The notes beneath the pieces are model-generated. The model worked only from the letters and a program-made list of their open reading frames with translations. It was not told where the DNA came from and ran no database searches. DNA of 64,000 nt from Oscillospiraceae bacterium (GTDB lineage: Bacteria; Bacillota; Clostridia; Oscillospirales; UBA929), in contig WRLU01000001.1 in assembly GCA_009777475.1 (NCBI GenBank), positions 87,608 to 151,607 of the forward strand. The letters are read 5' to 3'. Both the position numbers and the translations under genes were made by a program. Below, in pieces: positions 6,334-63,964 of this stretch; the stretch's first letter is position 1, and each line of letters opens with the position of its first letter.

Positions 6334-7521
6334 ATGTCAAAAATTGCTGTGGCGGGTGCCGGTTATGTGGGGCTTTCCAGCGCGGTGCTACTTGCCCTGC
6401 GGCATAACGTGGTGATTTTGGATATTGACAGGGAACGAGTTAACCAAATCAATCATGGGCATTCACCTATTTTAGATGCTGACATTCAGCAATATATGAA
6501 TGAAAAAGAACTTAGTCTTACCGCCACAACGGATGCTAAAAATGCTTTTAGCGGCGCCGACTGCATAGTTATTGCCACTCCGACAAACTATGACCCTGAA
6601 CGCAGTTTTTTTGATACATCTTCGGTCGAGAGCGTACTTGCCCAGACAGATGCGTTCGCACCCGGGGCTTCTGTTGTTATACGCTCTACCCTGCCTGTGG
6701 GCTATTGCTCAGCAAAAGCCGTTGAATACAAATTGATGCCGCTTTTCTTTATGCCTGAGTTTTTGCGCGAAGGAAACGCCCTTCTTGACAATTTGTATCC
6801 ATCGCGCATTATTGTTGGCATACCTGATTGTGACGAGAAGCTTATGCCAAAAGCCCGGGAACTGGCGGATTTATGGCTAAGTGCCTCACTGAAAGAGGAT
6901 GTGGATGTACTCTTTACCTCCTCAACCGAGGCAGAGAGTGTGAAGCTGTTTTCCAACACTTATTTAGCAATGCGTGTGGCGTTTTTCAACGAATTAGATT
7001 CCTTTGCAGAAATAAACCGTCTCGACTCGCGTAAAATCATCCGGGGGGTTTGCTTAGACCCGCGTATAGGAGATCATTACAACAACCCTTCATTCGGTTA
7101 CGGAGGGTATTGCCTACCTAAAGACACAAAACAGCTTTTGGCAAATTATTCTAACATACCCAACAATATTATAACAGCGATTGTGCAGGCAAACAGCACA
7201 CGGAAGGATTTTATAGCAGAACAGATCCTTTCTAAAAAACCCAAAGTTGTAGGCATTTACCGACTTACCATGAAAACAAGCTCCGATAACTTCCGCCAAT
7301 CCTCCATACAGGGCATTATGAAGCGGATCAAGGCAAAGGGCATAGACGTGATCGTATATGAACCAGCATTGACAGATCAGTTGTTTTTTAATTCCAGGGT
7401 AATTGTTGACCTGAGCGAGTTCAAGCGGCTGGCTGATGTTATTGTGGCAAACCGTTCCGGGAAAGAACTGGCGGATGTAATGGATAAGGTTTATACTCGC
7501 GACCTTTTTGGAAAAAACTAG
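6334..7521 (+). CDS. ugd: UDP-glucose/GDP-mannose dehydrogenase family protein (UDP-glucose 6-dehydrogenase-like)
   Basis: GAGYVG Rossmann motif and catalytic GGYCLPKD motif. Confidence 0.85.
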
Positions 7522-7685
7522 TAAAGAAAAATGCACCATATTAAAAAATTAATATTATACTGATTTTACGGCTTGTTTGTATCCGAATCACGTAATTGCT
7601 GCTGGTCACTGCCAGTTGAATGCGCCGGTGAGTGTTGGGCGAGTGTTGCGGTATTAAGTATTAGCTAAGAAGGAGAGTATCAGCA

Positions 7686-8960
7686 ATGAAAATATCTGCA
7701 CCCAAAGGCACACATGACATTTTGCCGGGTGAATCTGGAAAGTGGATTTGGCTTGAAAATATTCTGCGCCAAGCTGCTGGACGTTATGGGTTTTCGGAAA
7801 TTCGTTTCCCTGCATTTGAGCATACGGAGCTTTTTTTGCGAGGCATAGGTGATACAACCGATGTGGTGCAAAAGGAAATGTACACTTTTCAGGATAAAGG
7901 CGGGCGTTCGATTACTCTCCGCCCGGAAGGAACCGCCTCAACGGTAAGGGCGTTTGTCGAGCATGGCCTTCACACTACGCCCATGCCCTTCAAATGTTAT
8001 TACATCGCCCCAAATTTCCGTTACGAAAACCCACAAAAGGGCCGACTTCGCCAGCATCACCAGTTCGGCGTAGAATGCTTTGGTGCAAAGGAACCCTCTG
8101 CTGACGCGGAGATTATCGCGCTGGGCAACGATGTTATGGCAAATACAGGCTTGCAGAATGTCAGCCTGCGGATCAACTCTGTTGGATGCCCCTCCTGCCG
8201 GCCTGGCTACAATCAAAAGCTAATAAAGTTCTTAGAAAACTGCCGCCCCAAACTTTGCCAAGATTGCAACAACCGTCTTTCTCGCAATCCTATGCGTATA
8301 TTGGACTGCAAAAACGAAAATTGCCGTGCAGAAATAAAAGATGCCCCTGTAGGAACTGACAGCCTGTGTGACGATTGTAGCACACACATGGAGCAGCTGA
8401 AGATATATCTTGAGTATATGGGAATATCTTTTGATGTAGACCCTTCTATAGTCCGTGGCCTGGACTACTATACTAAAACAGTGTTTGAATTTATTAATGA
8501 CGGCATTACACTTTGCGGAGGCGGAAGATACGATGATCTGGTAAGAGCCTTAGGCGGCCCGGTTACCCCAGGCTTGGGATTTGGCTGTGGCTTAGAACGC
8601 CTTTTGATGATGCTGAAGCGTCAAAATGTTACTGACAAACCGTGGGAGGGTTGTGATATTTATATCGCCGCACTGGGCGTGGCCGCTGATCGACACTCAA
8701 TGCGCTTGTGTAACCAGCTTAGGTCTCATGGATTTTCGGCAGAACGCGACATATGCGGTCGCGGCTTGAAGGCGCAGATGAAGCATGCCGACAAGATAGG
8801 GGCAAGATATACCTTTGTACTTGGCGAGCATGAGCTAACCACGGAAAAAATAGAATTAAAAGATATGGCAACAGGTCAAATCCACGCCGGGAATTTAGAA
8901 ATTTCTTTTTTGGAGGGAATTCTCGGCAACCGCGGGAGGAATCATTCAGATGGGGGGTAA
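7686..8960 (+). CDS. hisS: histidine--tRNA ligase
   Basis: Class II aaRS motifs (FRYENPQKGRLRQHHQFGVE, GGGRYD) and an anticodon-binding C-terminus. Confidence 0.95.
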   Translation: MKISAPKGTHDILPGESGKWIWLENILRQAAGRYGFSEIRFPAFEHTELFLRGIGDTTDVVQKEMYTFQDKGGRSITLRPEGTASTVRAFVEHGLHTTPMPFKCYYIAPNFRYENPQKGRLRQHHQFGVECFGAKEPSADAEIIALGNDVMANTGLQNVSLRINSVGCPSCRPGYNQKLIKFLENCRPKLCQDCNNRLSRNPMRILDCKNENCRAEIKDAPVGTDSLCDDCSTHMEQLKIYLEYMGISFDVDPSIVRGLDYYTKTVFEFINDGITLCGGGRYDDLVRALGGPVTPGLGFGCGLERLLMMLKRQNVTDKPWEGCDIYIAALGVAADRHSMRLCNQLRSHGFSAERDICGRGLKAQMKHADKIGARYTFVLGEHELTTEKIELKDMATGQIHAGNLEISFLEGILGNRGRNHSDGG

Positions 8961-9591
8961 TATATGTATTCCATTTGAAAATTATATCCCTTGTTCATCG
9001 CCGGATATACAATGCGCCTTTGACTGGCGGGAAGAGATTTTGGAAAAACCGGGATGCTGCCTAATACACAAACATTCTATCAGCGGTTTTTTTGTACCAC
9101 CCGATTTAATTAAGGAAAAGTACCCAAGCACCTGTGAACGGCAACTTGAACGGCTTTCTCGTATGCGAGGAATATTCGAACGTCAGGCATCAGGGGACGG
9201 CTGGGTTGAGTTTCTCCCGACCACATTATACGATGCAGTGTCTATAAACGCTAGCTGTGCTGTTTCCGGCTTGGAGCTGTTTGCAGAAAGCGGCTTAACA
9301 CTTCAACATGAAGCCCTGCGTGCCGCCCTTCAGATTATGAAAGCCTGCCTGACACGCTACCCTAATTACCGTATTGTATGGACACCTCAGCCATTGCCGG
9401 TCAGCTTGTGGATAAAGGAAGGACGGGAAGCACTGTATTGCATTGAGAAAAAACCGGAACTACTCTCAGTCCGCATCTCACCCACAAGCGAACAAACGCC
9501 TGAGCCGGGCTTAGAGCAGGCTGACGAAAAAGACAGGGGTGCGTTTTTTTTAGATGAACTCTTAGAAAGTCTTTCCGATGCTACGATGTAA
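8950..9591 (+). CDS. hypothetical protein
   Basis: 213-aa ORF with a GGGAGGA SD 9 nt upstream. It overlaps the hisS end by 11 nt. I recognise no family. Confidence 0.5.
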   Translation: MGGNICIPFENYIPCSSPDIQCAFDWREEILEKPGCCLIHKHSISGFFVPPDLIKEKYPSTCERQLERLSRMRGIFERQASGDGWVEFLPTTLYDAVSINASCAVSGLELFAESGLTLQHEALRAALQIMKACLTRYPNYRIVWTPQPLPVSLWIKEGREALYCIEKKPELLSVRISPTSEQTPEPGLEQADEKDRGAFFLDELLESLSDATM

Positions 9592-9682
9592 AACCGATGC
9601 AGGTGAAAAAAGCCTTTACAAACAGTATAGTCTTTGCTATACTGTGACAGCTATGACTTTATCGGAAGGGGTTAATGTAGAT

Positions 9683-10363
9683 ATGGCAACTGACTTTTCG
9701 CGTTCTTTGGCAATCTTGCGTAAGGAAAAGGGCGTGTCGCAACGGATAGCATGTCAAAATTTAGAGGTCACCCAAGCTGTTCTTAGCCATTACGAAACGG
9801 GCGCACGTGAACCTGGGTTAAGCTTTGTGGCAAAGGCCTGCGATTACTATGACGTAAGTGCAGACTTTCTGTTAGGAAGAACGTTGTCGCGCGATGGCGG
9901 CATTCTCAGACAGGACGATATTTCTAGCACAGAGGAGCAAAAACAAAACCGCCCGGGAAAGGGCTCGATAAGCTCGCTGTTTGCCAAAAAGTTGGTGGTC
10001 AATGCTATGAGTCTTTTGTTTGAATATGCCGGGCGTACAGGTCATACGCAATTGATTACCGAGATGACAAACTTCTTTTCCGCTGCGGTATATAAAATTT
10101 TCCGTCACTTTTATGCCTTTGTCGGTGAAAACGAAAAGGATTTTTTTTCAATAAGCAACAAGGTTTACATAAGCGCATCAAACGCAGATATGGCTGAAAG
10201 CGAGGCACGTTTACTTGCTGTATTACACGGAGACAAGCAGGCACGCCTCGAATTGCCGCCAATTTCTAATGATGCATTGTCCCAGGAGTACCCTCGGCTC
10301 GTCCAGGCTCTGTACGCCCTTGTTCATCAAGCGGGCGAACGTGCCGCAAAAAAACTACCATGA
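9683..10363 (+). CDS. XRE-family helix-turn-helix transcriptional regulator with C-terminal extension
   Basis: HTH segment LRKEKGVSQRIACQNLEVTQAVLSHYETG. ATG 9683 is preceded by GGAAGGGG. The ORF track extends to 9578. Confidence 0.7.
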   Translation: MATDFSRSLAILRKEKGVSQRIACQNLEVTQAVLSHYETGAREPGLSFVAKACDYYDVSADFLLGRTLSRDGGILRQDDISSTEEQKQNRPGKGSISSLFAKKLVVNAMSLLFEYAGRTGHTQLITEMTNFFSAAVYKIFRHFYAFVGENEKDFFSISNKVYISASNADMAESEARLLAVLHGDKQARLELPPISNDALSQEYPRLVQALYALVHQAGERAAKKLP

Positions 10364-10863
10364 TGATACGCTTGGTTTCAGAATTGCCCATCGGGGTTTT
10401 GCATGAAAGGCTGCTGAGATTTTGCACACCCCTCGAAAAGGGTAATTTAAATAAAAAAAACGTCACGCTGCATAAAGGCAGTGCCTCACGATTTATGTTA
10501 GTGCAAAATGGTTCCTGCGGAAGAATGCGCCCCCTGAGAGTTTTCAAAGGTTGCATAGCGAAAAATAAAAAAGGTCAAACAGAAATAACCGGAGCATTCA
10601 GCATTTCGTTATTATCCGGCATACTGGTGACAATACCTGCCTTGCTGATTGTTTTTGGGGCGTTTGCCGTCTCTTCCCACTTAGGGTGGGTTAGCCGCTT
10701 AGTTTTTTGCCTATCGGCAGTATTCGGGGTTTCAATGGTTTTTTATTTCATGTCTCGTATGAGCAAATTTGCCGGAACAGATAACGACAAAAAGCTTTTG
10801 ATGTTTCTCAGTGAGAATATCGCAAAGGGAATTGACCCGCAAAAAAATGATGACACGACTTGA
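10360..10863 (+). CDS. hypothetical membrane protein (start uncertain)
   Basis: ATGA overlap with the upstream XRE gene. The C-terminal half has 2-3 TM helices. Alternative starts at 10495 or 10525. Confidence 0.4.
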   Translation: MMIRLVSELPIGVLHERLLRFCTPLEKGNLNKKNVTLHKGSASRFMLVQNGSCGRMRPLRVFKGCIAKNKKGQTEITGAFSISLLSGILVTIPALLIVFGAFAVSSHLGWVSRLVFCLSAVFGVSMVFYFMSRMSKFAGTDNDKKLLMFLSENIAKGIDPQKNDDTT

Positions 10864-11027
10864 CAGCAGTTTTGCCGTCTCTGCGTGTCAATTTCGTTTG
10901 CGGCTTAGGTCCTGCCTCCATAAGCCCCTCGGCACTCACGTTCCGGCAGATTTCCCCTTGCGCCTCGTTGGTTTTTTTTCACTAAACCCTAAGCCTATAG
11001 GGGTAGGTTCTTAATTTTCGGTGAGGT

Positions 11028-11912
11028 CTATTTTACTGCGATTTCTGCCGAGAATTTTTCGATCAATTTTACAGGATGGTATGAAAGCTTGGACTTTCGC
11101 AACCCTTCAACCCCAGTATCCTCTTCCCGATTGATATAGCGTACCTCATCGGTGGCGTATTGGCGGGCAAAGCTCTGTACCATCATGGGATATGCCCCAG
11201 GTATGCTTACATCACCCTTTTCTATGTGTACAAACAGTGTATCACCTACAATTTCCCCTGCGCTGACCGCCGCGATACGGTCATTTGCCGTCAGTATGCC
11301 AACGAGCATTCCGTGGTGCCCATCAGCTTTAAAGACCTCGCGGGTTTTGCGGTGTTCCTCTGCTGCCATTGCCGATTTGGGCGGCGTTTTAGAAAAATAA
11401 TGTTCAAGAAACTGCATAACATCATCTTGCATCCCCTCAATGGATGAATGAAACTGCCAGTTGGGATTCTCCCTGACAAAACGGTTGACATGGTTGCGCT
11501 GACCGTGGTATTTCCGTCCGCTGAATTCCCGCAGATCGCTGGAATTGTACAGATAATCAAATAAATCCCGATGGCAGGTATCCTTAATCAAAGCCCCATG
11601 CCCTCTCAGTATTCCTACGTCTTCCGCACACAGTGGCGATAATAGTACCGGGGATCTATTTGCGCAAAAGTCCAATAAAATGGGCAAGCTCCGGGCTAAA
11701 TCACCTCCTAAGGGCCGGGCGTATGCCTCGCGACCGCTATAACGCACCTTCAAGAAAAGGGTGTCATTGTATTCGGCATACTGTGTGCAAAAAAAATCTC
11801 GCCACATAATTAATGCACCAGGGGTATAATCACAAAACCGGCAATTAGATTGCAGAAGATATGGCCGTATGCGGATGAGATCCTGAGGCAATAAGGGAGC
11901 AAAGGTCAGCAT
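11028..11912 (-). CDS. DUF2156-like protein (phosphatidylglycerol lysyltransferase C-terminal-like fold)
   Basis: 294-aa ORF. The N-terminal pattern resembles the DUF2156 family as I remember it. Not verified. Confidence 0.5.
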   Translation of the reverse strand: MLTFAPLLPQDLIRIRPYLLQSNCRFCDYTPGALIMWRDFFCTQYAEYNDTLFLKVRYSGREAYARPLGGDLARSLPILLDFCANRSPVLLSPLCAEDVGILRGHGALIKDTCHRDLFDYLYNSSDLREFSGRKYHGQRNHVNRFVRENPNWQFHSSIEGMQDDVMQFLEHYFSKTPPKSAMAAEEHRKTREVFKADGHHGMLVGILTANDRIAAVSAGEIVGDTLFVHIEKGDVSIPGAYPMMVQSFARQYATDEVRYINREEDTGVEGLRKSKLSYHPVKLIEKFSAEIAVK

Positions 11913-12832
11913 AAATCATCGAACCCCTTGTTAATTTCAAATTTCTTCCCCTTTAGATATTCTAAGAAATCGGCTGATGTGCGAAAATTAAAAAGCAGGC
12001 TTGTGGCGCAAAGAGCCTGATGCCGCTTTCCGGAGTGGTTGTCCCTTCCGTACTTCCCATCTCCCAGTATAGGATGGCCGTGATGGGCACATTGAACTCG
12101 TATCTGGTGTGTTCTGCCGGTTATAAGGTAACATTCAAGTAAACAGAGTCCATGGCGAGTCTCGATGGTATTATACTCTAGCTCTGCTGTCCTTGCACCC
12201 TTTGTTAAGCCCTTACATACCGTTACCAGGCTTTGCCGCGCGTCTTTGTACAAAAAATCCCGCCAAATTCCCCGATTAGGCGATGGCGTTCCAAAGACAA
12301 CGGCACGGTAGGTTTTTCGGATTTCGCGCAGTGCGATTTTTTCTGTTAGAATACGCAATGCCGGGGCGGTTTTTGCCGCTAAAACCAGCCCTTCGGTTCC
12401 TCTGTCCAGCCTGTGGCACAGCGATGGGGTAAATACGTTTTCCTCTGCCGGGTTCCATTTTCCCCGGTCCAGAAGATAAGTCCTCATGGAAGACTCCAAG
12501 CTGTTATCCAATGGGATATTGGATTGGCTCAATAAACCGGGCGGTTTGTGTAAAACCAAGATATTATCGTCTTCATACACTACAATGGGCATTGGGGCGT
12601 TGCGATACAGCAGATAAGCTGGGGATTCTGGTTGCGGCTCATTGACATACAGCCGCAACTCATCGCCCGCGGTCAGCCGTACATCAGCCGGGCAGCGTTT
12701 GCCGTTGCGCTTGACATTTTTGGTGCGGAACGCTTTTTGAATTGCTGAAAATGGAATGTCTGCGGCGGCTTTTCGCAAAAAACGGTCAGCCCGCATATCT
12801 GCATCATTTGCCTTGATTACATATTGCCGCAT
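11906..12832 (-). CDS. RluA-family 23S rRNA pseudouridine synthase
   Basis: S4-like N-terminus and the catalytic HRLDRGTEG motif. Confidence 0.9.
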   Translation of the reverse strand: MRQYVIKANDADMRADRFLRKAAADIPFSAIQKAFRTKNVKRNGKRCPADVRLTAGDELRLYVNEPQPESPAYLLYRNAPMPIVVYEDDNILVLHKPPGLLSQSNIPLDNSLESSMRTYLLDRGKWNPAEENVFTPSLCHRLDRGTEGLVLAAKTAPALRILTEKIALREIRKTYRAVVFGTPSPNRGIWRDFLYKDARQSLVTVCKGLTKGARTAELEYNTIETRHGLCLLECYLITGRTHQIRVQCAHHGHPILGDGKYGRDNHSGKRHQALCATSLLFNFRTSADFLEYLKGKKFEINKGFDDLC

Positions 12833-12853
12833 AATTTTGTATCCCTTCCTAGC

Positions 12854-14512
12854 CTACACCTTCACAATTACAGGCAAAATCATTGGTTTTCTCCTGGTTT
12901 TAGCAATTACATGGGAGCCTAAAGAACTGCGGAGGCTTTGCTTAATTGCCGCCCAGTCTGTATTACGGCGGCTCACGGATTTTTCAATCGTTTCAATTGT
13001 TAATTGCCGCAGCTCTTCTATGGTTCCCTCTGCCTCTTTATTAAGCGCAAAGCCCCGGGTGATTATATCCGGGCCTGAAATAATAGAGGAACAATCACAA
13101 GCCATAGCTAAAACCACCATGATTAGTCCATCATTTGCTAGATGCTGGCGATCACGCAGAATAACGCCGGCAACATCCCCTATGCCCATACCATCAACTA
13201 AAATCTGGCCCGCCTGTACGGCTGTGCCTAAACGGATTCCTCTCTCGGAAAATTCAATTGGTCGCCCTAATTCAGGGATAAGCATACGATTCGGGTCATG
13301 TCCCATTGAGGATGCCAGGCCAATATGGGCTTTGAGCATACGATATTCCCCATGTACCGGGATGAAATACTTAGGTTTTACCAGTGCTAAAATCAATTTA
13401 AGCTCTTCTTGGCATGCGTGACCCGAAACGTGCACATCTGCTAATTTTTCGTAAATCACCTCGCAGTTGCGCCGCAAAAGCTCGTTGACCAGCTTGCCGA
13501 CCGTTTTTTCGTTTCCCGGCACGGGCGATGCCGAGATTATTACACGGTCATCCTGGCCTAAATCTACCTGCCTGTGTGCCCCGAATGCCATTCTGTGCAA
13601 TGCAGACATGGGTTCGCCCTGACTGCCAGTGGTTATTATACAAACCTTGTCTTTAGGAAAGCTCTTAACCTGCGGCAATTCTATAATAGTATCAGGCGGA
13701 ATATTAATATAGTCAAGCTGAATGGATACTCTTAAAATATTTTCCATACTTCTTCCTGTAATAGCCACACGCCGCCCGGAGGCTATTGCGGCGTTGATTA
13801 TTTGCTGAAGCCTATGAACATTGGAGGCGAAGGTGGTAACTACAATTCTTTTGTCGCAGCCATTGAAAAGATTCAGCAGTGCCTCGCCCACGCGTTTTTC
13901 GCTCATGGCGTACCCCGGACGTTCGACATTAGTTGAGTCAGACAAAAGAGCTAAAACACCCTTGCTGCCCAAATGCCCCAATCTCGCTAAATCAATCATG
14001 GCACCATCAACCGGGGTAGAGTCTATCTTGAAATCTCCCATATGCACAACCATTCCGGCAGGGGTGCCTATACCAAGGGCCACCGCTCCGGCTATTGAAT
14101 GGTTAACATGGATAAACTCGACCGTAAAGCATCCGGTGCGCACAGCCATGCCCGGCTCTATACAGCACAAATCAACCTTATGCAATAACCCTGCCTCGTC
14201 AAGCTTAACCTCCAATAATCCCGCGGTCAGGCGAGTACAGTAGATGGGGCAGGAAATTTCCTTCATCAAAAAACTAACCGCCCCTATATGGTCTTCATGC
14301 CCATGTGTGATACACAAGGCGCGTATGCGGCTAATATTTTTTATTAGCCAGGCAAAATCGGGGATAACAATATCAACCCCGAACATATCGTCTTCTGGAA
14401 AAGACAGGCCGCAGTCCACTAAAATAATATCAGCACCATATTCGTACACAGTTAAATTTTTACCAATTTCACCAATTCCTCCCAAGGGGATAATTCTCAA
14501 TTTTGGAACCAT
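12854..14512 (-). CDS. rnj: ribonuclease J
   Basis: Metallo-beta-lactamase HGHEDHIGA motif, beta-CASP domain and RNase J C-terminal domain. 552 aa. Confidence 0.95.
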   Translation of the reverse strand: MVPKLRIIPLGGIGEIGKNLTVYEYGADIILVDCGLSFPEDDMFGVDIVIPDFAWLIKNISRIRALCITHGHEDHIGAVSFLMKEISCPIYCTRLTAGLLEVKLDEAGLLHKVDLCCIEPGMAVRTGCFTVEFIHVNHSIAGAVALGIGTPAGMVVHMGDFKIDSTPVDGAMIDLARLGHLGSKGVLALLSDSTNVERPGYAMSEKRVGEALLNLFNGCDKRIVVTTFASNVHRLQQIINAAIASGRRVAITGRSMENILRVSIQLDYINIPPDTIIELPQVKSFPKDKVCIITTGSQGEPMSALHRMAFGAHRQVDLGQDDRVIISASPVPGNEKTVGKLVNELLRRNCEVIYEKLADVHVSGHACQEELKLILALVKPKYFIPVHGEYRMLKAHIGLASSMGHDPNRMLIPELGRPIEFSERGIRLGTAVQAGQILVDGMGIGDVAGVILRDRQHLANDGLIMVVLAMACDCSSIISGPDIITRGFALNKEAEGTIEELRQLTIETIEKSVSRRNTDWAAIKQSLRSSLGSHVIAKTRRKPMILPVIVKV

Positions 14513-57860: not shown

Positions 57861-57950
57861 GGAGAGGTGTCCGAGTGGCCGAAGGAGCACGATTGGAAAT
57901 CGTGTGTACGCAAAAACGTACCAGGAGTTCAAATCTCCTCCTCTCCGCCA
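57861..57950 (+). tRNA. tRNA-Ser (anticodon GGA)
   Basis: Manual cloverleaf: GGAGAGG acceptor, CACGA-TTGGAAA-TCGTG anticodon arm, long variable arm GTACG-CAAAAA-CGTAC, T arm AGGAG-TTCAAAT-CTCCT, encoded CCA. Confidence 0.9.
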
Positions 57951-57959
57951 AGCCAATGT

Positions 57960-58006
57960 CAAGCCCCCGACAAAAAAATTCTTAAAATTTTTTTGTCGGG
58001 GGCTTG
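57960..58006. terminator. bidirectional terminator after tRNA-Ser
   Basis: A perfect 19-bp palindrome, CAAGCCCCCGACAAAAAAA ... TTTTTTTGTCGGGGGCTTG. Confidence 0.8.
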
Positions 58007-58029
58007 ACGGCACCATTTCCCCTTATATA

Positions 58030-58606
58030 TCAAGGGGTTTTCCAAACAACCTCAAGCTTCATGCCGGGATATACCAATACCTTGTCAACCAACGCTTCCA
58101 CCAATTCAGGGGATAGTTTTTTCGCCCCAAGTGCCCCCCTCACGGTGCTAGACAATGGTTTGCCCGCCGCTTTTTCTTTGTTCTTGGCGGCACAACGGCT
58201 CCTTTTGTCAAATTCAACTTTGGTAGTTTTGTACTGTTCTTCGCCAATCTCCCCAAGAACAAACTGCTCGTACAAAATTCGCTTGGCATCTTCGTTTTCA
58301 GAGGATTGGGGCGAAATATTATCCTCAATATTGCCCAAAAAACTGTTTCGCTCGCTGAGATACAGCCTTGTAAACCTCTGTTTCCAGCTCTTTTGCCGGA
58401 ATTTTAAGCCGATAGCAGTCTCTATCCGGCGCAACATGGGTAAATTGGCAGTGAAACGCTGTGTTTTTAGTTTGGCTGAGTCTCATTTTATGCCCGCAGC
58501 AACCGCAGACCACTTTGCCTTTCAGAGGGTTGTCAAATTTTCCATATCGCTCCCATGTTCCGATTTTCCGTCCCCTCAACGGAGACTTGCGCAAGCAGAT
58601 TACCAA
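58030..58606 (-). pseudogene. large serine recombinase, C-terminal remnant (catalytic domain deleted, internal frameshift)
   Basis: A zinc-ribbon piece (GKVVCGCCGHKM...FHCQF) and a C-terminal piece (LSPELVEALVDKVLVYPGMKLEVVWK) lie in two frames. No resolvase domain. Confidence 0.7.
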
Positions 58607-58866
58607 GGCGGTGCTGGAGGAGTTCAGCCAAGCGGTTGAGCTGAAAGCCGAGAAACATCAAGGGCTTGCCGACCAAATGCGTGAGGCTGGGGCAAAGGCG
58701 GCGGCTCATAATGCTGAAAAAGCAGGCCAGCCGAAACCGTCAAGGGCGGCGGAGATTGCGGTCTAAAAGCAGACCGATAGGAAAAGGCGGCGTTTTGCCG
58801 CCTCCTTTTCCTTTGACGAAACCAAAAATGTGTGGTAAAATCAAAACAATACGAGGGGGTAGCGGC

Positions 58867-60123
58867 ATGGAATGTACGCTGATGCACAAAAATATCCCGG
58901 TTTTAGACCTTACCATTTCGGAATATAGCGGAAATATTGAAAAACACGGCAATATTCATAATTCCGCTCATATTCCGCTTGGCACAACCATTAACTCCGG
59001 AAGAGAAAAGGGCAATATTATCCCCCGTTCTCTCAATGACTGGTGGACTGGCCGCTCTATCCCTGCCAGCCGTGACGGGATTCGGGAAGTCTTTGAAACG
59101 CTCGGGATTCACAATACGGCTTTGCTTCTGACCAAATGTTACGGTTTGAGTTTGTCTGACCAGTATTGGGTTTGTCCGAAAAATTCAGGGTTGTGCTGGG
59201 AAAATGTCAATTTTTTTCACAATGAGTTTTCAAAAGATGTCGGTGAGATATTGTTTGGTTCAACATCGGAAGACCCCGAACACATCAGCCTTATGTCGCC
59301 GGACAACACATCGGACGGCTGGCTTCGCAAAAAGTGGATTATTGCAAACGAAAAGCGGGTTTTGATGAAAGGCGGCAGCGGTGTTTATCAGCAAGAACCG
59401 TTCAACGAAGTGGTTGCGACTGCCATTATGCGGCGGCTTGGCATTGAGCATATTCCATACACCGTAACAACTGAAAAAGGAAAGCCATACAGTTTGTGTG
59501 AAAATTTTGTCATGCCCGAAACCGAGTTAGTTCCGGCTTGGCGTGTATGTCATACTCTGGAAAAAGATAACAGGGATTCTCATCTAATGCACCTCTTGCG
59601 TTGCTGTGAAAATCTCGCTATACCAAATGTCAGCGATGCAATGAACAAAATGCTTGTCCTAGACTATATCATTGCCAATCAAGACAGGCATTACAACAAT
59701 TTCGGCTTTATCCGCAATGCAGAAACGCTGGAATGGCTTGGGTTTGCACCGATTTTTGACAGCGGAACATCGCTCTGGTATAACACACAAAGGGTAGGTA
59801 TCGAGACGGAAAGCAAGCCTTTCCGAAAAACCCACCAAGAACAAATCAAGCTAGTGACGGATTTTTCGTGGTTTGAACATTCTTCCTTAAAAGGGCTGGC
59901 AGATGAAATAATGGAGATTTTTTCTTCTGCCCCGGAAGTTGACCAAGCCAGAGCAAAGTCAATTACACGGCAGGCGTTGGAACGTGCCGGACAAATCGAA
60001 CAACTGGAAAAAACGAAAATCCCCTTGGCACAGCGGATGGAAACAGCTCGTGCAGAAGCTGAAAAGCATAATGCCCAACGAGAAAAAATACCCGGCAAGC
60101 AAAAAAACGAACACGAAATATAA
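58867..60123 (+). CDS. HipA-like Ser/Thr kinase (HipA_C domain), orphan
   Basis: NQDRHYNNFGF matches the HipA D-x-H-x-x-N-F catalytic loop. APIFDSG matches the HipA P-L-Y-D metal-binding motif. ATG 58867 follows GAGGGGG. The ORF track starts at 58666. Confidence 0.75.
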   Translation: MECTLMHKNIPVLDLTISEYSGNIEKHGNIHNSAHIPLGTTINSGREKGNIIPRSLNDWWTGRSIPASRDGIREVFETLGIHNTALLLTKCYGLSLSDQYWVCPKNSGLCWENVNFFHNEFSKDVGEILFGSTSEDPEHISLMSPDNTSDGWLRKKWIIANEKRVLMKGGSGVYQQEPFNEVVATAIMRRLGIEHIPYTVTTEKGKPYSLCENFVMPETELVPAWRVCHTLEKDNRDSHLMHLLRCCENLAIPNVSDAMNKMLVLDYIIANQDRHYNNFGFIRNAETLEWLGFAPIFDSGTSLWYNTQRVGIETESKPFRKTHQEQIKLVTDFSWFEHSSLKGLADEIMEIFSSAPEVDQARAKSITRQALERAGQIEQLEKTKIPLAQRMETARAEAEKHNAQREKIPGKQKNEHEI

Positions 60124-60198
60124 TCAAACAAATGTCGGTATGAAAGCACCCATTCAGAACGGATGGGTGCTTTGTGCCGCACCGAAAAGGAGGAAAAT

Positions 60199-61353
60199 AT
60201 GGAGTCTGAAAAAATTGAGCAAATGCAAGATTGGCTCTTCGCCCGCATCAATAAAAACTACACCGAATACCTTGATTCATTGGATAATTTCAGCAAAACT
60301 GAAATTATCAACATGGCGGGAAGAATCAAGGCTGTGTCTGATGCACATTCATATATGACCACATGGCACGATTATGACGCACATGAGCTGGCCTATCTTC
60401 TTGAATTTCAAAATCCCCTTGAAGTTTTTGCTGACGAATGGTACGAACGCTGTATTGACCAGAGCGACATGAGTTTTGCGATGGAAGAGATTTATGAACG
60501 CAGTGAGTTTCTGTTAGATCAATATCCTCTGATACATGATGCAGACGTACCCATTGACACAAGCCTGCGGCGGTTTATGGGTGTTGATTTGGAAGTGTTT
60601 CTCGGTAAAATCGCAGAAAAAACGATTGTCCATTATCCCAATGACTGGAAATACGATGCCCAAGAACTGCGTAAAATAGCACAGGCCGGGAACAGTGAAG
60701 ATAAGCGGTTGATTTGGCACGTCTGTTCAATGGGTACACACTTGAAAAATGAGCGTGATGTGTATATCAGGGACACCGGGGCGTATGAATTTATGACAGA
60801 TTATCACCAAAATGACCCGGATATGTTCGGCTATTATGTCGAGGTTTTGGGCGTGGACAGCAGCGGCAGTGTTGTCGGTAACGTCTTTGAAGTGGGCAAT
60901 TACGCCGAGTTTGCGGAGCATATCCGCAATGTGGCCGAGACGCTTGAATCGCTAACTCTCATTTACTCTGACTCTTGGGGTGTCAACGCCGGAAAAGCCG
61001 TCACGGTCAGCCGCAGGGAGTATGACGACGACCGTCACCGCCTGATGAGCCAAAGCGGTAACGTAACTAAGGTTGTCTACCATCCCAAGGATAAAGTGCG
61101 TCTGGCAGGATTGATTGTTGCTGAAAGGGCACGGCGTATGTCTCGGCCAATGGGCAGCATGAGTACGCATTTTCAGAAAATTCACGAAATCTTAAAAGAA
61201 GTCCGTAAGCCCCCGGAAAAATCCAAGTCAAAAGACAGAGTGCCGCTGGATGAACAAATCAGAATAGGCAGAGAAAAAATGAAGGCACAAAATAACGCAC
61301 AGGAGGCGGCACAAGCAAATACTAAATCCCGCAAGCGAAATGAACGCTCTTGA
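60199..61353 (+). CDS. hypothetical 385-aa protein with K/R/E-rich tail (mobile-element associated)
   Basis: AGGAGGAAAA SD. I recognise no motif. It vaguely resembles uncharacterised proteins of Clostridiales conjugative elements. Confidence 0.6.
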   Translation: MESEKIEQMQDWLFARINKNYTEYLDSLDNFSKTEIINMAGRIKAVSDAHSYMTTWHDYDAHELAYLLEFQNPLEVFADEWYERCIDQSDMSFAMEEIYERSEFLLDQYPLIHDADVPIDTSLRRFMGVDLEVFLGKIAEKTIVHYPNDWKYDAQELRKIAQAGNSEDKRLIWHVCSMGTHLKNERDVYIRDTGAYEFMTDYHQNDPDMFGYYVEVLGVDSSGSVVGNVFEVGNYAEFAEHIRNVAETLESLTLIYSDSWGVNAGKAVTVSRREYDDDRHRLMSQSGNVTKVVYHPKDKVRLAGLIVAERARRMSRPMGSMSTHFQKIHEILKEVRKPPEKSKSKDRVPLDEQIRIGREKMKAQNNAQEAAQANTKSRKRNERS

Positions 61354-61396
61354 CATTGCAACGATTATTCGTTATAATGCAGTCAGGAGGATTTTA

Positions 61397-61969
61397 ATGA
61401 TGAAATTAAGTGAAGTTTTGCAAGAAAAAAATATGACAAAATACAGGCTTTCCAAAATCAGCGGAGTGCCTTTTACGACTGTCAGCGAAATCACCACGGG
61501 CAAAACAAACATCAAAAATTGCACCGGCGAAACGCTGTATAAACTAGCAAAGGCTTTGAATGTAACAATGGAGGATTTGGTCAGGGACAGTGTGGAATAT
61601 CGTCAGAATTTTGAAACTTACAAGAGCAATATCTGCCATATGGTCAAGGATATGGGCGATATCGATTTTATTATTAACACGTTGGAATCAGGCAAAATCC
61701 GAACGCTGTATCAAAAAAAGTGGTATCCTGAAAGCCTGTATCTTTTGGCGATGCTTGACTATTTAAGCCGTGAGAATGATTTGCCCCTTTGTGAGGACTA
61801 CAGTGATATTCGAGCCGTTCGTCTGAGTGACCCGATTTACCCGGCAAGTATTATTGCTATGAGCGTGTTCTGCCGTAGCGACCAACCCAAAAAAGATAGC
61901 TATGCAGAGGCAATACCTGAGTTTATACGGTTTAATATCGTGGAAAGCGAGGTGCGTAATGTCTGCTGA
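61397..61969 (+). CDS. XRE-family HTH protein with ~120-aa C-terminal domain
   Basis: HTH segment KYRLSKISGVPFTTVSEITTGK. AGGAGG SD. The ORF track starts at 61340. Confidence 0.7.
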   Translation: MMKLSEVLQEKNMTKYRLSKISGVPFTTVSEITTGKTNIKNCTGETLYKLAKALNVTMEDLVRDSVEYRQNFETYKSNICHMVKDMGDIDFIINTLESGKIRTLYQKKWYPESLYLLAMLDYLSRENDLPLCEDYSDIRAVRLSDPIYPASIIAMSVFCRSDQPKKDSYAEAIPEFIRFNIVESEVRNVC

Positions 61970-62300
61970 TATGCCGTTTACCAAAGAAAATCTTGACACA
62001 ACCCTCAAAGAACTCGGCAAGACGTTCCGAAAGCTAAACGGTACAAAAATGCCCGCTGAAATTATCCTGATTGGTGGTGCGGCAATACTTGCCAATTACG
62101 GTTTTCGTGAGATGACCTATGATATTGATGCTGTAATCCTTGCCTCTTCCGCTATGAAAGAGGCGATTAACCATGTAGGCGACAAAATGGGATTGCCTAA
62201 CGGCTGGCTCAATGCGGACTTCAAAAGGACGGCATCCTTTTCGGAGAAACTCTTGCGGAATATTATCTGCGCACATATAACTTCCTGCTCGAAGGCATAA
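61959..62300 (+). CDS. minimal nucleotidyltransferase-fold protein, probably C-terminally truncated
   Basis: GGAAILANYGFREMTYDIDA fits the G[GS]-x9-13-D-x-D NTase motif. Overlaps the XRE gene by 11 nt. The sequence changes character after about residue 95. Confidence 0.5.
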   Translation: MSADMPFTKENLDTTLKELGKTFRKLNGTKMPAEIILIGGAAILANYGFREMTYDIDAVILASSAMKEAINHVGDKMGLPNGWLNADFKRTASFSEKLLRNIICAHITSCSKA

Positions 62301-62370: not shown

Positions 62371-62721
62371 ATGCCAGATGTGGTTTATATTGTCTTAATA
62401 ATTGCTATGATTGTGGGGTTTGGTTATTTCGCTTGGGCTATGAAAAAGAAGGAAGACGAACGCAAAGACAGAAAAGAACAAATGAAGCACGAGCGTAAAA
62501 TGAACAACCGCCATAACCGAAAGAAAGAACAAGCACGGTTGAAACATGAGCTTGAGATGGCAAAAGTACAGACGGCGCACGAGTTCAAGACCGATAAAGA
62601 GCAGAAGGCTCACGAACGCATGATGGATGGGCGTAAATCTATTGGTGAACAGTTGATAGAGATTATCCCCGATTCCCTTAAGAGTGTTGGAGATATTCTC
62701 AGCTTTTGGAAGAAAAAATAA
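62371..62721 (+). CDS. hypothetical membrane-anchored K/E/H-rich protein
   Basis: One N-terminal TM helix, then charged repeats (KEQMKHERKM, KEQARLKHE, KEQKAHERMM). GAGGGGGAAA SD. Confidence 0.5.
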   Translation: MPDVVYIVLIIAMIVGFGYFAWAMKKKEDERKDRKEQMKHERKMNNRHNRKKEQARLKHELEMAKVQTAHEFKTDKEQKAHERMMDGRKSIGEQLIEIIPDSLKSVGDILSFWKKK

Positions 62722-62741: not shown

Positions 62742-63230
62742 ATGGCGCGACAGCGATTACGTGATAGGTACACGCACGAGGACTTAGGTGTTACCAAAGC
62801 TGAATTTAACAGACTGTTGCAAGCTGTTGACGACGAGATAATTCACGAGGGTATTGCCTTTTCAAAAAGAAACATTGATATGTTCAAGTATGGCGGTATG
62901 CGTATTGATGACCTTATAAGAACTTGGTCTGTCCGTGGCTATAAAGACCCCTTTGAAGGTCGTGTGTTCGACATTAGTCAGCGCGAGTTTGAAGAAATTG
63001 TTTATGAAGCCGCTGTAAATAACCCAAGTGTTGACGCATACAAAATCGAAGGGGCTACCGTATACGTAAAATTCTATTCGCGCTCCAGAAAACAGAGTTG
63101 GCAGGCGGTTTTAGATTTTAACGATGACGGAAGATATACCCGCCGTTTTTGTGGACACAGGCTTAGAATATCCCGAATTGAGGGCATTTGTGCGGACAAA
63201 AGACGATGTAACACCCTAAAAAGTTTTTGA
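62742..63230 (+). CDS. hypothetical protein, C-terminus replaced by out-of-frame gene debris
   Basis: AGAGGTGGGG SD and ATG 62742. After about residue 130 another frame reads VFVDTGLEYPELRAFVRTKDDVTP, a PAPS-reductase-like fragment. Confidence 0.45.
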   Translation: MARQRLRDRYTHEDLGVTKAEFNRLLQAVDDEIIHEGIAFSKRNIDMFKYGGMRIDDLIRTWSVRGYKDPFEGRVFDISQREFEEIVYEAAVNNPSVDAYKIEGATVYVKFYSRSRKQSWQAVLDFNDDGRYTRRFCGHRLRISRIEGICADKRRCNTLKSF

Positions 63231-63390: not shown

Positions 63391-63663
63391 ATGCCAAATA
63401 TACAACCCAGCACAATTTTAGGAACGCATTACAATGACATCTCTTCCTTCTGTAACGATAACCGTGAACCTATGTTCATTACCAAAAATGGACAAGGCGA
63501 CCTTGCAGTGATGAGCATTGAGATGTATGAAAACCTCAATGGCAAACAAGAGTTGTACCGCTTATTGGATGAGGGTATGGCGGATATACAAGCGGGTCGG
63601 GTACGTCATTACAATGAAGTCTTTGACGAAATTGAGCAGGAGATATTGGATGGACATTTATAA
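63391..63663 (+). CDS. Phd/YefM-family type II antitoxin
   Basis: 90 aa with the pattern PMFITKNGQGDLAVMSIEMYE. GGGGAGG SD. Confidence 0.8.
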   Translation: MPNIQPSTILGTHYNDISSFCNDNREPMFITKNGQGDLAVMSIEMYENLNGKQELYRLLDEGMADIQAGRVRHYNEVFDEIEQEILDGHL

Positions 63664-63964
63664 AGTCGAGCTAGCCAAAGCTGCTGAATGCGATATGAAA
63701 GATATCGCACGATACATCACATCAAAACTAAATGCACCGACAGCCGCAATTAATACGGTACAGGCGATTAGGGCAGAAATTGGCAATCTGAAAACAAATG
63801 CTCTTCTGCATTCGCTTGTTCGAAATGACCGACTGTCGGATAAAGGCTACCGCCCGATGATTATAAAAAACTACATCGTTTTTTATGTGGTCAATGAGAA
63901 GGACAAAATTGCCTCTGTTGCTCGTATTCTCCATAGCCGCCGTGATTGGCAAAGCATCTTGTAA
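63650..63964 (+). CDS. RelE/ParE-family type II toxin
   Basis: 104 aa from ATG 63650, overlapping the antitoxin by 14 nt. The C-terminal pattern YIVFYVVNEKDKIASVARILHSRRD is typical of ParE/RelE. Confidence 0.8.
   Translation: MDIYKVELAKAAECDMKDIARYITSKLNAPTAAINTVQAIRAEIGNLKTNALLHSLVRNDRLSDKGYRPMIIKNYIVFYVVNEKDKIASVARILHSRRDWQSIL

Follow-up and report, generated by a model that had tools for sequence, protein, structure and literature searches.

The window analyzed here, a 64,000-nt stretch of contig WRLU01000001.1 from an Oscillospiraceae bacterium, contains four co-directional, tightly spaced genes that encode, in order, a HipA-like kinase, a 384-aa protein, an XRE-family HTH protein and a nucleotidyltransferase (NTase). 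A first-pass annotation, made from the sequence alone, had proposed that they form a reversed or tripartite HipA toxin-antitoxin or abortive-infection operon or, alternatively, two juxtaposed modules. The question raised by this locus is whether the four genes are one unit. All four ORFs were recovered in the ORF list at the coordinates originally described (Table 1), and they are very probably juxtaposed remnants of an ICE rather than one operon.

Table 1. Features at the right end of the window (positions are those of the window).
Feature	Coordinates	Strand	Basis
tRNA-Ser(GGA)	57861..57950	+	ARAGORN; Rfam tRNA model 53.6 bits, E 2e-10
23-nt inverted repeat, perfect	57958..58008	.	Repeat search: 100% complementary, 5-nt loop
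Large serine recombinase debris	58030..58606	-	ORFs 58030-58437, 58325-58606
3' fragment of lost gene	58580..58766	+	Tail HMM
Terminator-like GC-rich hairpin, then T-rich run	58785..58803	+	Also found as inverted repeat
Promoter-like site, TTGACG-17-TAAAAT with TG	58813..58841	+	Consensus match only
CtkA/HipA-fold Ser/Thr kinase, 418 aa	58867..60123	+	Pfam HipA_C, PDB profile search, Foldseek
Tail on kinase, …KIPLAQRMETARAEAEKHNAQREKIPGKQKNEHEI	60013..60120	+	Tail HMM E 2.3e-6; 7.5e-8 after iteration
Intergenic RNA hairpin, kinase to 384-aa gene	60133..60181	+	MFE -30.8 kcal/mol
384-aa accessory protein, conjugative transfer region	60199..61353	+	Homologs, synteny, AF2
Tail on 384-aa protein, …RVPLDEQIRIGREKMKAQNNAQEAAQANTKSRKRNERS	61231..61350	+	Tail HMM E 1.2e-6; 8.9e-8 after iteration
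Sigma-70 consensus promoter, TTGACA-17-TATAAT	61350..61378	+	12/12 match
XRE-family HTH protein, 189-190 aa	61397..61969	+	HTH_26 5.7e-12
Truncated DUF6036 nucleotidyltransferase, 113 aa	61959..62300	+	Pfam DUF6036 positions 2-60/164
Unknown 116-aa protein	62371..62721	+	Only weak, scattered HMM matches
162-aa protein	62742..63230	+	Gene call from metagenome contig L001
Phd/YefM-ParE toxin-antitoxin pair	63391..63964	+	63391-63663 and 63650-63964

The kinase gene spans 419 codons including the stop, and in its product, a HipA-like N-terminal subdomain is followed by the core kinase domain and, at the C-terminus, by a tail. The protein matched Pfam HipA_C above the gathering score (E 4.7e-10), and more than 6000 homologs were found. 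The two motifs noted at first pass, D-R-H-Y-N-N-F and P-I-F-D, are present (in NQDRHYNNFG and FAPIFDSG), and every column that is invariant among 30 aligned family members is retained; judged by its motifs, the kinase appears catalytically intact. The HipA-type glycine-rich loop is replaced in the family alignment by a conserved SPDNTSDGWLRKKW motif. The nearest solved relative is CtkA (JHP0940) of the Helicobacter pylori tfs3 ICE (PDB 3AKJ/3AKK/3AKL), the best match to the kinase core in both sequence and fold, and not E. coli HipA. A profile search of the PDB with the kinase family returned CtkA at 7.4e-13 and HipT at 0.08, whereas E. coli HipA gave no match at E ≤ 1. The AF2 model (pLDDT 76) was matched best in Foldseek by CtkA (TM-score 0.64, target-normalized); it also aligned over most of full-length HipA (TM 0.52). 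The DRHxxN and FDxG catalytic motifs are identical in CtkA and the window kinase, but the cores share just ~21% identity, and CtkA (325 aa) is without the ~120-residue HipA-like N-terminal subdomain.

As the first-pass annotation had noted, no HTH gene precedes the kinase; a gene fragment, a terminator-like hairpin and a promoter-like site (10/12 matches plus TG) are located there instead. In other Hip families, reversed gene orders (hipAB and hipEB) are known, as are antitoxins that are encoded downstream and are not HTH proteins (PMC8262856). In 79 genome loci with kinase homologs, none of nine flanking positions held a conserved neighbor: the most recurrent neighbor cluster at positions -4 to +5 appeared in at most 4 loci, and a homolog of the 384-aa, XRE or NTase protein adjoined the kinase in none. 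No conserved small ORF was found downstream of the kinase in 85 loci, nor was a HipB, HipS, HIRAN, Stl-like or resolvase-like partner gene found beside it. HipA of hipBA and the Hip families described by Gerdes et al. 2021 (HipT, HipH/YjjJ, HipE and others) are among the closest known systems. The kinase family consists of solo genes and in this resembles monocistronic HipH/YjjJ, with which it also shares an N-terminal HTH fusion in some members (HTH_59, 4 of 30 aligned).

The presence of a hairpin in the gap that follows the kinase gene was borne out, although its earlier description as weak was not (z -5.7; 0 of 200 shuffles folded equally well). No U-tract follows it. The 384-aa ORF beyond is well started, as had been reported (AGGAGG 7 nt 5' of the ATG), and its sole Pfam match was to DUF3848, below threshold (E 1e-3). 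Many of its 105 homologs are longer DUF3848 mosaics, and the protein itself comprises a DUF3848-like helical N-terminal module, an alpha/beta core and a C-terminal tail; the AF2 model (pLDDT 86) found no fold match in the PDB or BFVD. In 80 metagenome loci, the neighbors of this family included SpoVG (44 loci), VirB6-like (36), VirB4 (25) and T4CP (18) genes, and a kinase in none. The conserved synteny, which comprises VirB6-like, HD, SpoVG, PrgI/VirB4 and T4CP genes, places the family in the transfer region of Firmicutes conjugative elements, between the VirB6-like and PrgI/VirB4 genes. The 384-aa protein is the product of an ordinary conjugation-region gene that usually resides inside the T4SS operon of the element. 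Homologs of the kinase and of this protein are adjacent in only two further contigs, in the same order in L163 and reversed in L164. An adjacency so rare and so variable in order is consistent with two genes that belong, as cargo or backbone, to one family of conjugative elements.

The XRE gene starts at 61397 or 61400, 43 nt after the 384-aa gene, and overlaps the NTase ORF by 11 nt; these positions and the HTH_26 match agree with the first reading. The XRE protein has a conserved C-terminal domain of ~120 aa and 3714 homologs at 70-83% identity. The suspected truncation of the NTase was confirmed: tblastn with full-length, 242-aa homologs covered only 61959-62258 (residues 1-100), and the remaining residues are absent from the window. 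The XRE gene and a gene for a 242-aa DUF6036 protein, with the identical 11-nt overlap, were found in three unrelated contexts, and DUF6036 follows XRE in all three. The two constitute a conserved, translationally coupled, autonomous pair; the consensus promoter predicted to serve this pair extends over the stop codon of the upstream 384-aa gene. The window pair is 74-83% identical to intact pairs and keeps the G-G…D-I-D motif of the NTase, but the loss of ~140 distal NTase residues appears to have inactivated the module here. The NTase matched neither AbiEii in Pfam nor any PADLOC model, and the earlier comparison to AbiE did not hold; the XRE-DUF6036 module, to our knowledge uncharacterized, is toxin-antitoxin-like and only loosely comparable to AbiEi/AbiEii or MNT-type nucleotidyltransferase pairs.

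A single non-canonical HipA operon, with the 384-aa and/or XRE protein as the downstream antitoxin or regulator, is thus very improbable. Despite the co-directional arrangement and the adjacency seen in L163 and L164, the genes do not co-occur (linkage in 0/79 kinase loci and 0/80 loci of the 384-aa family), which strongly disfavors the model. Furthermore, the gene order differs between those two contigs, the 384-aa gene has its place in a conserved T4SS synteny, and a strong hairpin intervenes between it and the kinase gene. The XRE gene has its own 12/12 promoter and another, strictly conserved partner. The proposal of two juxtaposed modules fared better for the XRE/NTase pair than for the kinase and its neighbor, which were not upheld as a module.

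A C-terminal tail of ~35-40 residues (consensus KKPSLADRLAAAKEKAKAQNA…KKREEEID) is common to the kinase, its 384-aa neighbor and the product of the gene fragment upstream. The fragment, which matched no Pfam family, retains this tail only (ending …GLADQMREAGAKAAAHNAEKAGQPKPSRAAEIAV at its stop; tail HMM E 2.4e-4, and 3.2e-9 after one iteration). The tail is present in 17 of 29 aligned kinase homologs and throughout the alignment of the 384-aa family, and the tails of the two families align even though the families are unrelated. The iterated tail HMM gave 123 matches at E ≤ 0.01 among 10,053 ORF C-terminal segments, all on the operon strand; a reversed control yielded 0 at the same threshold. 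In full-length proteins, the tail ended ≤5 residues from the C-terminus in 74 of 78 cases and ≤20 residues from it in the other 4, and a search of 1.84 billion representative proteins returned 39 matches, of which 37 were at the very C-terminal end. Among the carriers are DUF3848 mosaics, SpoVG-domain proteins, the kinase, DUF7007, DUF6674 and a 179-aa protein of unknown family; no fewer than six unrelated families of these conjugative elements have had the tail appended. A conserved helical motif, P-S/T-L-x-D/E-R/K-L-x-x-A/G-x-E-K-A/V-K-A-Q/H-N-A, precedes an end of the form K-K/R-x-E-E-R/I-D/E; the charge is mixed and not net-positive, and the AF2 models predict that an amphipathic helix gives way to disorder at the end.

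A precedent exists in the tfs3 element, where CtkA, PZ39 and Fic have a common 27-residue C-terminal tail that is needed for CtkA-dependent, Tfs3-T4SS-dependent signaling and is missing or divergent in CtkA homologs of other gut bacteria (PMC5536186). Like the window kinase, CtkA is variable cargo of a conjugative element, has no antitoxin and bears a tail found on unrelated proteins of its own element. The two tails are not homologous, however (27 residues ending KRRR vs. ~38 ending K-K-R-E-E-x), the host here is Gram-positive and the T4SS is of another type; CtkA is thought to target eukaryotic cells, and export of the window kinase is argued by analogy. Substrate signals of VirB/D4 T4SSs are equally short, C-terminal, partly disordered, charged and borne by unrelated proteins of one element, but their ends are rich in Arg/Lys, whereas the present tail has mixed charge and a helical motif. 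For Gram-positive conjugative T4SSs, we know of no defined protein-substrate signal. F-like plasmids are known to transfer proteins via conjugative T4SSs (PMC8406263), and transfer of polyvalent proteins by this route has been suggested (PMC5512222). By analogy with CtkA, PZ39 and Fic, the tail may be a secretion or docking signal; we consider its being a T4SS or T4CP signal possible but less likely than not.

The strict C-terminal position in six families fits a terminal recognition signal, but a protease degron, which would limit tailed proteins to the transfer window, would look alike. A helix that docks the proteins on the relaxosome or on DNA is another candidate; the predicted amphipathic helix with its disordered end and the absence of net positive charge favor a purpose other than export. 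The authors of the CtkA study suggested that a conserved tail might be a recombination site that creates variation in gene content (PMC5536186). Tails of different families were more alike within a locus (identity 0.325) than between loci (0.250; Mann-Whitney p 4e-6, uncorrected for shared ancestry or gene conversion), and gene conversion at a recombination-prone cassette boundary would give the same result. The three window tails, however, have low similarity at the DNA level and no common repeat ≥14 nt, which argues against recent recombination here. We consider it distinctly unlikely that the tail serves one of these purposes while the kinase regulates transfer in the donor.

The kinase could also be a self-contained toxin-like or defense kinase, carried as element cargo and acting within its host, where it would serve abortive infection or growth control, with a tail unrelated to export. 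The family is not confined to conjugative elements, as most homologs from cultured genomes are without the tail and ICE hallmark genes were found by BLAST within 8 kb in just 13 of 80 genome loci. Some genomes have tandem copies (three in L038), and arrays are common for defense genes. The kinase matched the PADLOC defense-candidate model PDC-M03A (up to 7.8e-21), and the resemblance to monocistronic YjjJ extends to the HTH fusions. PDC-M03, however, comprises two genes (HipA and a HIRAN protein), no partner match was found here, and PDC systems are unvalidated candidates; CtkA, moreover, is not the toxin of a toxin-antitoxin system. Those proteins most closely related to the window kinase have the tail and are encoded within ICEs. 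Unlike Hip kinases, the relatives that were looked up are tied to conjugative elements, and the tail-bearing ones lie within such elements at varying positions: kinase, 384-aa homolog, PrgI in L163; PrgI, VirB4-like, kinase, M23/NlpC hydrolase, sortase in P0064; and SpaA adhesin, kinase, topoisomerase, YodL/ArdC-N in P0039 and P0019. A purely host-acting kinase is possible but rather unlikely.

The surroundings are those of a decayed element, and the mobile-element remnant beside a toxin-antitoxin pair described at first pass was found. The tRNA-Ser(GGA) is a chromosomal gene that abuts the left end of the island, and the inverted repeat just 3' of it is probably a bidirectional terminator marking the left edge. 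Of the recombinase, only the C-terminal part survives, in two frames, and the catalytic N-terminus is gone (NCBIfam XisF positions 287-359/465, E 6.6e-7; PHROG integrase, 4.8e-7). The hairpin at 58785 appears to close the upstream gene fragment. Past the NTase, the 116-aa protein has a single N-terminal membrane helix and a low-complexity body rich in K/E/R, the 162-aa protein matched no family HMM, and the Phd/ParE pair was recognized by Pfam (PhdYeFM 1.9e-6, ParE_toxin 1.4e-13). The locus is also present in two metagenome contigs, in which chromosomal genes restart shortly past ParE. The window holds no T4SS, so an export function of the tail could not work in cis here.

Taken as a whole, the best explanation, which we hold with moderate confidence, is that of decayed ICE remnants with a stranded kinase that bears a putative export or docking tail. 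The region from 58.0 kb to past 64 kb would be the stump of a Clostridia ICE lodged at tRNA-Ser, from which four pieces would have survived: the stand-alone CtkA/HipA-fold kinase, which has a promoter-like site to itself and lacks a cognate antitoxin; the 384-aa accessory protein; the autonomous XRE-DUF6036 module, with its NTase inactivated; and the two small proteins plus the Phd/ParE pair. In the intact element, the tail would act as a common docking or export signal, most likely read by the coupling protein (T4CP), and the kinase and other tailed proteins would function at the mating channel or be delivered to it. A delivered kinase could then phosphorylate recipient or donor proteins during transfer, in parallel to what was put forward for the tfs3-encoded proteins CtkA, PZ39 and Fic in H. 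pylori. As the secretion machinery has been lost from this genome, the kinase would be an orphaned cargo gene.

All four co-directional genes proposed in the first-pass annotation were recovered at their places by ORF listing and HMM scans. That annotation had read them as a non-canonical HipA-type toxin-antitoxin or abortive-infection cluster (order: kinase, unknown protein, HTH, nucleotidyltransferase). As it had described, no HipB-type HTH gene lies upstream of the kinase; a gene fragment, a terminator-like hairpin and a promoter-like site are located there instead. The recombinase debris, ICE-type genes and Phd/ParE pair also bear out its description of a mobile-element remnant beside a toxin-antitoxin pair. 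The locus is a remnant of an integrative conjugative element (ICE), and the cluster was judged very probably to comprise juxtaposed remnants of such an element rather than one operon. The features are collected in the table.

Features of the island and its left boundary (positions in the window)
Feature	Position	Strand	Remarks
tRNA-Ser(GGA)	57861-57950		left of island
Perfect 23-nt inverted repeat	57958-58008		5-nt loop; 8 nt past tRNA-Ser
Large serine recombinase	58030-58606	-	C-terminal two-thirds, split over two overlapping frames
Gene fragment with tail	58580-58766	+	
Terminator-like hairpin	58785-58803		upstream of kinase
Promoter-like site	58813-58841		upstream of kinase
Kinase, 418 aa	58867-60123	+	Pfam HipA_C, E 4.7e-10
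Intergenic hairpin	60133-60181		between kinase and 384-aa gene
384-aa gene	60199-61353	+	strong AGGAGG ribosome-binding site; Pfam: sub-threshold DUF3848 at N-terminus only
Sigma-70 promoter	61350-61378		perfect consensus TTGACA-17-TATAAT; overlaps 384-aa stop codon, directly upstream of XRE
XRE protein	61397-61969	+	HTH_26, 5.7e-12
NTase ORF, 113 aa	61959-62300	+	11-nt overlap with XRE; covers 2-60 of the 164-position DUF6036 profile
116-aa protein	62371-62721		one N-terminal membrane helix; highly charged K/E/R-rich repeat-like body
162-aa protein			downstream of 116-aa gene; no informative family match
Phd/ParE pair			downstream of 162-aa gene
Tail copies	58580-58766, 60013-60120, 61231-61350	+	ends of gene fragment, kinase and 384-aa protein

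The tRNA-Ser gene scored 53.6 bits (cut-off 29) in a region-restricted Rfam search; the whole-window search at gathering thresholds missed it, a filter-sensitivity effect. The adjacent inverted repeat is probably a bidirectional terminator, and it marks the junction of chromosome and island. A copy of the tRNA 3' end (attR, direct repeat) delimiting the island was sought downstream in L001, a contig with the same locus, and was not found. The recombinase has lost its catalytic N-terminal domain, the place of which is taken by the plus-strand gene fragment; the island is therefore no longer able to excise by its own enzyme. Type IV secretion system (T4SS) genes are absent from the window, where the T4SS neighbors of the 384-aa gene have been lost. 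With no T4SS left in this part of the genome, the kinase has become an orphan. The 116-aa protein gave weak matches to ZorB/MotB (PADLOC, 6.5e-6) and to an Rz-like spanin (PHROG, 7e-5) that are probably compositional; PADLOC, NCBIfam and PHROG searches with the 384-aa, 116-aa and 162-aa proteins and with full-length DUF6036 returned nothing informative. An identical locus is present in two metagenome contigs, in which chromosomal genes restart ca. 0.5-0.8 kb past ParE. Most of the related sequences were derived from termite-gut metagenomes.

The kinase has the catalytic loop (NQDRHYNNFG) and the Mg-binding motif (FAPIFDSG) ascribed to it on first reading; DRHYNNF and FD(S)G are invariant in the family alignment, in which an invariant SPDNTSDGWLRKKW replaces the canonical glycine-rich loop. 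A 30-member kinase profile was searched against all PDB sequences. The best match was CtkA, the kinase of the Helicobacter pylori tfs3 conjugative element (E 7.4e-13), followed by Legionella HipT at 0.08; E. coli HipA was not retrieved at E <= 1. The DRHxxN and FDxG motifs are identical between the kinase alignment and CtkA. CtkA was also ranked first by Foldseek (E 8e-9) for the AlphaFold model of the kinase (pLDDT 76, pTM 0.77), and full-length HipA was aligned to this model over ca. 450 columns with a TM of ca. 0.5; an N-terminal domain of ca. 150 residues is retained. The kinase therefore shows the two-part architecture of HipA (N-subdomain and core), with a core closest to that of CtkA.

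This Firmicutes kinase family is large (more than 6000 clusters at E <= 1e-3), and its members are typically 370-420 aa in length. Four of the 30 aligned kinases (P0010, P0016, P0019 and P0022) are fused at the N-terminus to an excisionase-type HTH_59 domain, an arrangement reminiscent of YjjJ/HipH. Some members that are not so fused (P0027, P0068 and P0096) are named "excisionase" by NCBI; these names were probably transferred from the fused forms. Tandem or multiple copies were observed in some loci, including three in a row in Eubacterium callanderi (L038, 8001-~11600) and others in L013, L044 and L049. Plasmid collections held only distant relatives (34 records at <40% identity, plasmids of Helicobacter and Campylobacter among them), and a few unannotated metagenomic "phage" contigs in phage collections matched the kinase.

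For the neighborhood analysis, 80 kinase loci were fetched from reference genomes, ORFs were called, and all proteins were clustered by BLAST; 79 loci were analyzed. Between positions -4 and +5 relative to the kinase, no protein cluster occurred in more than four of these 79 loci, and no locus had a homolog of any of the other three proteins (384-aa, XRE, NTase) beside the kinase. A permissive search of 85 kinase loci for a small downstream partner ORF found nothing common to more than two. Thus, occasional HTH fusion aside, the kinase family has no partner gene.

The known systems were compared with these results. As in hipBA, there is a HipA-fold kinase with intact catalytic and Mg-binding motifs; no HTH gene lies upstream, where HipB is usually encoded, the only one being two genes downstream with its own promoter and a DUF6036 partner, and no kinase-partner pair is conserved (79 loci, or 85 for the small downstream ORF). 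In hipBST, the kinase lacks N-subdomain 1 and is accompanied by a separate HipS protein and an upstream HipB; here the kinase has the N-terminal domain, and neither HipS nor HipB genes were found among the window ORFs or by Pfam. The PADLOC model PDC-M03A (HipA-like) matched the kinase (best E 7.8e-21, 72.8 bits). PDC-M03 is a two-gene PADLOC candidate comprising HipA and a HIRAN-domain protein, and none of the five neighboring proteins scanned matched a partner model. In the Hip families of Gerdes et al., partner genes or fused HipS, HIRAN or HTH domains are always present (PMC8262856), whereas the family described here has neither partner nor fusion, bar the occasional HTH. Three features of CtkA-like kinases, by comparison, were observed: a core nearest to CtkA, carriage by conjugative elements as variable cargo, and a tail in common with unrelated proteins of the element. 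A new Hip toxin-antitoxin architecture is not supported: the kinase family has no conserved partner, and its closer relative is CtkA, not HipA. The reversed or tripartite Hip module suggested at first is not supported either, no kinase having been found in any of 80 metagenome loci of the 384-aa family. The kinase is of the CtkA/HipA-like type borne by ICEs and lies in a decayed element, and a HipA_C match beside an HTH gene is insufficient evidence for a hip module.

The alternative of two juxtaposed modules had paired the kinase with the 384-aa gene and the XRE gene with the NTase ORF; only the latter pair held. The XRE family comprises 3714 clusters (70-83% identical), and in three unrelated genomic contexts a 242-aa DUF6036 gene comes after the gene of the ca. 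189-aa XRE protein, the 11-nt overlap being reproduced exactly. Because the pair recurs in this way and has its own promoter, it is an independent, translationally coupled module. In the window, the XRE gene is intact (74-79% identity to pair members) and the overlap is kept. The NTase ORF is truncated, as had been suspected: its homology to the 242-aa partner stops at about residue 100, and the remainder is nowhere in the window. The pair here is a broken module, a member by descent that is probably inactive. The proposed likeness to AbiE was not sustained, as Pfam gave only DUF6036 and HTH_26/HTH_3, with no AbiEi or AbiEii domain, and PADLOC gave no AbiE match for either the truncated or the full-length NTase. 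In L165/L166, contigs with the intact pair, which lies at 5001-6288 in L165, two large ResIII/DEAD helicase genes (6446-10570), one with a TIR domain, adjoin it; a Fic gene is nearby, and the neighborhood resembles a defense island.

The intergenic hairpin upstream of the 384-aa gene had been called weak; it is in fact strong, with a 13-bp perfect core, -30.8 kcal/mol and a z-score of -5.7. It lacks a U-tract and is therefore not a canonical intrinsic terminator; it may instead serve in attenuation, RNA stability or processing. The 384-aa family is small (105 clusters) and almost entirely from termite gut; 24 aligned homologs are 38-57% identical over the core. The AlphaFold model of the 384-aa protein (pLDDT 86) had no significant PDB or BFVD match. 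Its best matches were to the TrwC relaxase, with a meaningless TM of 0.12.

Relatives of the 384-aa gene have a VirB6-like gene upstream and SpoVG, PrgI and VirB4 genes downstream. In L094, the order is DUF3991/Toprim, DUF3801, the coupling protein (T4CP; TraG/VirD4), Rha, MT-A70, TrbL/VirB6-like, HD, the 384-aa homolog, a SpoVG-domain protein, a VirB4-like ATPase and DUF6674. The T4CP of this locus (2820-4826) has a TraG-D_C domain, and its VirB4-like ATPase (10119-13067) has an intein-splicing domain match (PF14890, E 2.8e-9). Across the 80 loci, many of them on short contigs, VirB6-like genes were found in 36, SpoVG in 44, VirB4 in 25 and T4CP in 18. By its homology and the gene context of its relatives, the 384-aa protein is an accessory protein from the transfer region of conjugative elements in Clostridia. 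Homologs of the kinase and the 384-aa protein are adjacent in only two contigs, in opposite orders (kinase, 384-aa, PrgI in L163; reversed in L164), as expected for a kinase carried as variable cargo with several insertion sites in such elements. In the 384-aa/DUF3848 mosaics (L083-L162, almost exclusively termite-gut metagenomes), N-terminal modules are shuffled before the same tail: the IETEIWKPNPDRPGT module, DUF3848, and a barrel-like module (GDWVIAAGN…YLIGTVTAIDK).

That tail, first described as a K/R/E-rich end of the 384-aa protein, is real, and alignment and HMM place it on the kinase and the upstream gene fragment as well. It spans ca. 35-40 residues (ca. 38 in the consensus, PAKKKPSLADRLAAAKEKAKAQNAQNPQNKSKKREEEID), with the motif P-S/T-L/I-x-D/E-R/K-L/I-x-x-A/G-x-E-K-A/V-K-A-Q/H-N-A followed by K-K/R-x-E-E-R/I-D/E; its charge is mixed, not basic. 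About 35 extra residues past the kinase domain are present in 17 of the 29 closest kinase homologs. A similar C-terminal end occurs throughout the 384-aa family, and the tails of the two families can be aligned to one another. In the window, the tail HMM matched three consecutive plus-strand ORF ends. When iterated once, it gave 123 matches at E <= 0.01 among 10,053 ORF C-terminal segments, all on the operon strand, and a reversed-sequence control gave none; in 74 of the 78 matches to full-length proteins, the tail ends within five residues of the C-terminus. Its carriers include SpoVG-domain proteins, DUF7007, DUF6674, an unknown 179-aa protein, DUF3848 mosaics and the kinase; six or more unrelated protein families in related conjugative-element loci (L083-L164) have it, always C-terminally. 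All tailed kinases that were looked up lie inside conjugative-element gene sets, at differing positions. Tail identity across families is higher within a locus (0.325) than between loci (0.250; p 4e-6), a difference that may in part reflect shared history, and the two tails of L163 (kinase and 384-aa) are nearly identical. No DNA repeat or recombination scar was found at the three window tails, which are only ca. 50-65% identical at the DNA level and share no repeat. Nor did Pfam scans of tailed proteins at E <= 0.1 or 0.01 place any domain, DUF4316 included, over the tail. The kinase of L164 (3204-4543) has no tail, and a 90-codon ORF ending 185 nt downstream encodes one (E 6.6e-5), pointing to a frameshift or a misassembly between kinase and tail.

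To our knowledge, protein-substrate choice by Gram-positive conjugative T4SSs is poorly defined, and our literature search on the protein signals of these systems found no description matching the tail. In the tfs3 ICE, the unrelated proteins CtkA, PZ39 and Fic have a common 27-residue C-terminal tail, deletion of which abolishes CtkA-dependent, Tfs3-T4SS-dependent signaling; according to the same authors, the tail is missing or divergent in the CtkA homologs of Clostridium and Enterococcus (PMC5536186). The tfs3 case is a near parallel; the present tail is analogous to that of CtkA, not homologous. By this analogy, it could tentatively be seen as a docking or export signal for the coupling protein or T4SS of the element, in which case the kinase would act at the mating channel or pass through it. 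The mixed charge of the tail speaks against this reading, as does the loss of the T4SS from this genome region. A more specific proposal, also speculative, is that the tail may be the protein-substrate recognition signal of a Gram-positive conjugative T4SS family and the kinase a conjugation-delivered effector that would phosphorylate recipient proteins. The tailed repertoire (HipA/CtkA-fold kinase, DUF3848 mosaics, SpoVG-domain, DUF7007 and DUF6674 proteins) would then be injected with DNA into recipients, and the kinase, if so delivered, would be a bacterial-target counterpart of CtkA. Protein transfer by conjugative T4SSs is known (PMC8406263), and it has been argued that polyvalent proteins are element proteins delivered along with the DNA (PMC5512222). 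The chief competing role for the kinase, likewise possible but doubtful, is that of a self-contained toxin or defense cargo gene.

The finding as originally posed is ordinary: a decayed mobile-element stump in which a lone HipA-like kinase, a gene of the conjugation region and a two-gene module, now broken, are carried. The shared tail is the part worth pursuing, as it bears on substrate selection in Gram-positive conjugation. A candidate sequence-defined signal and a ready list of putative substrates would make the substrate question directly testable. If the tail is such a signal, this would suggest that recipient cells are sent protein kinases, along with other proteins, in advance.
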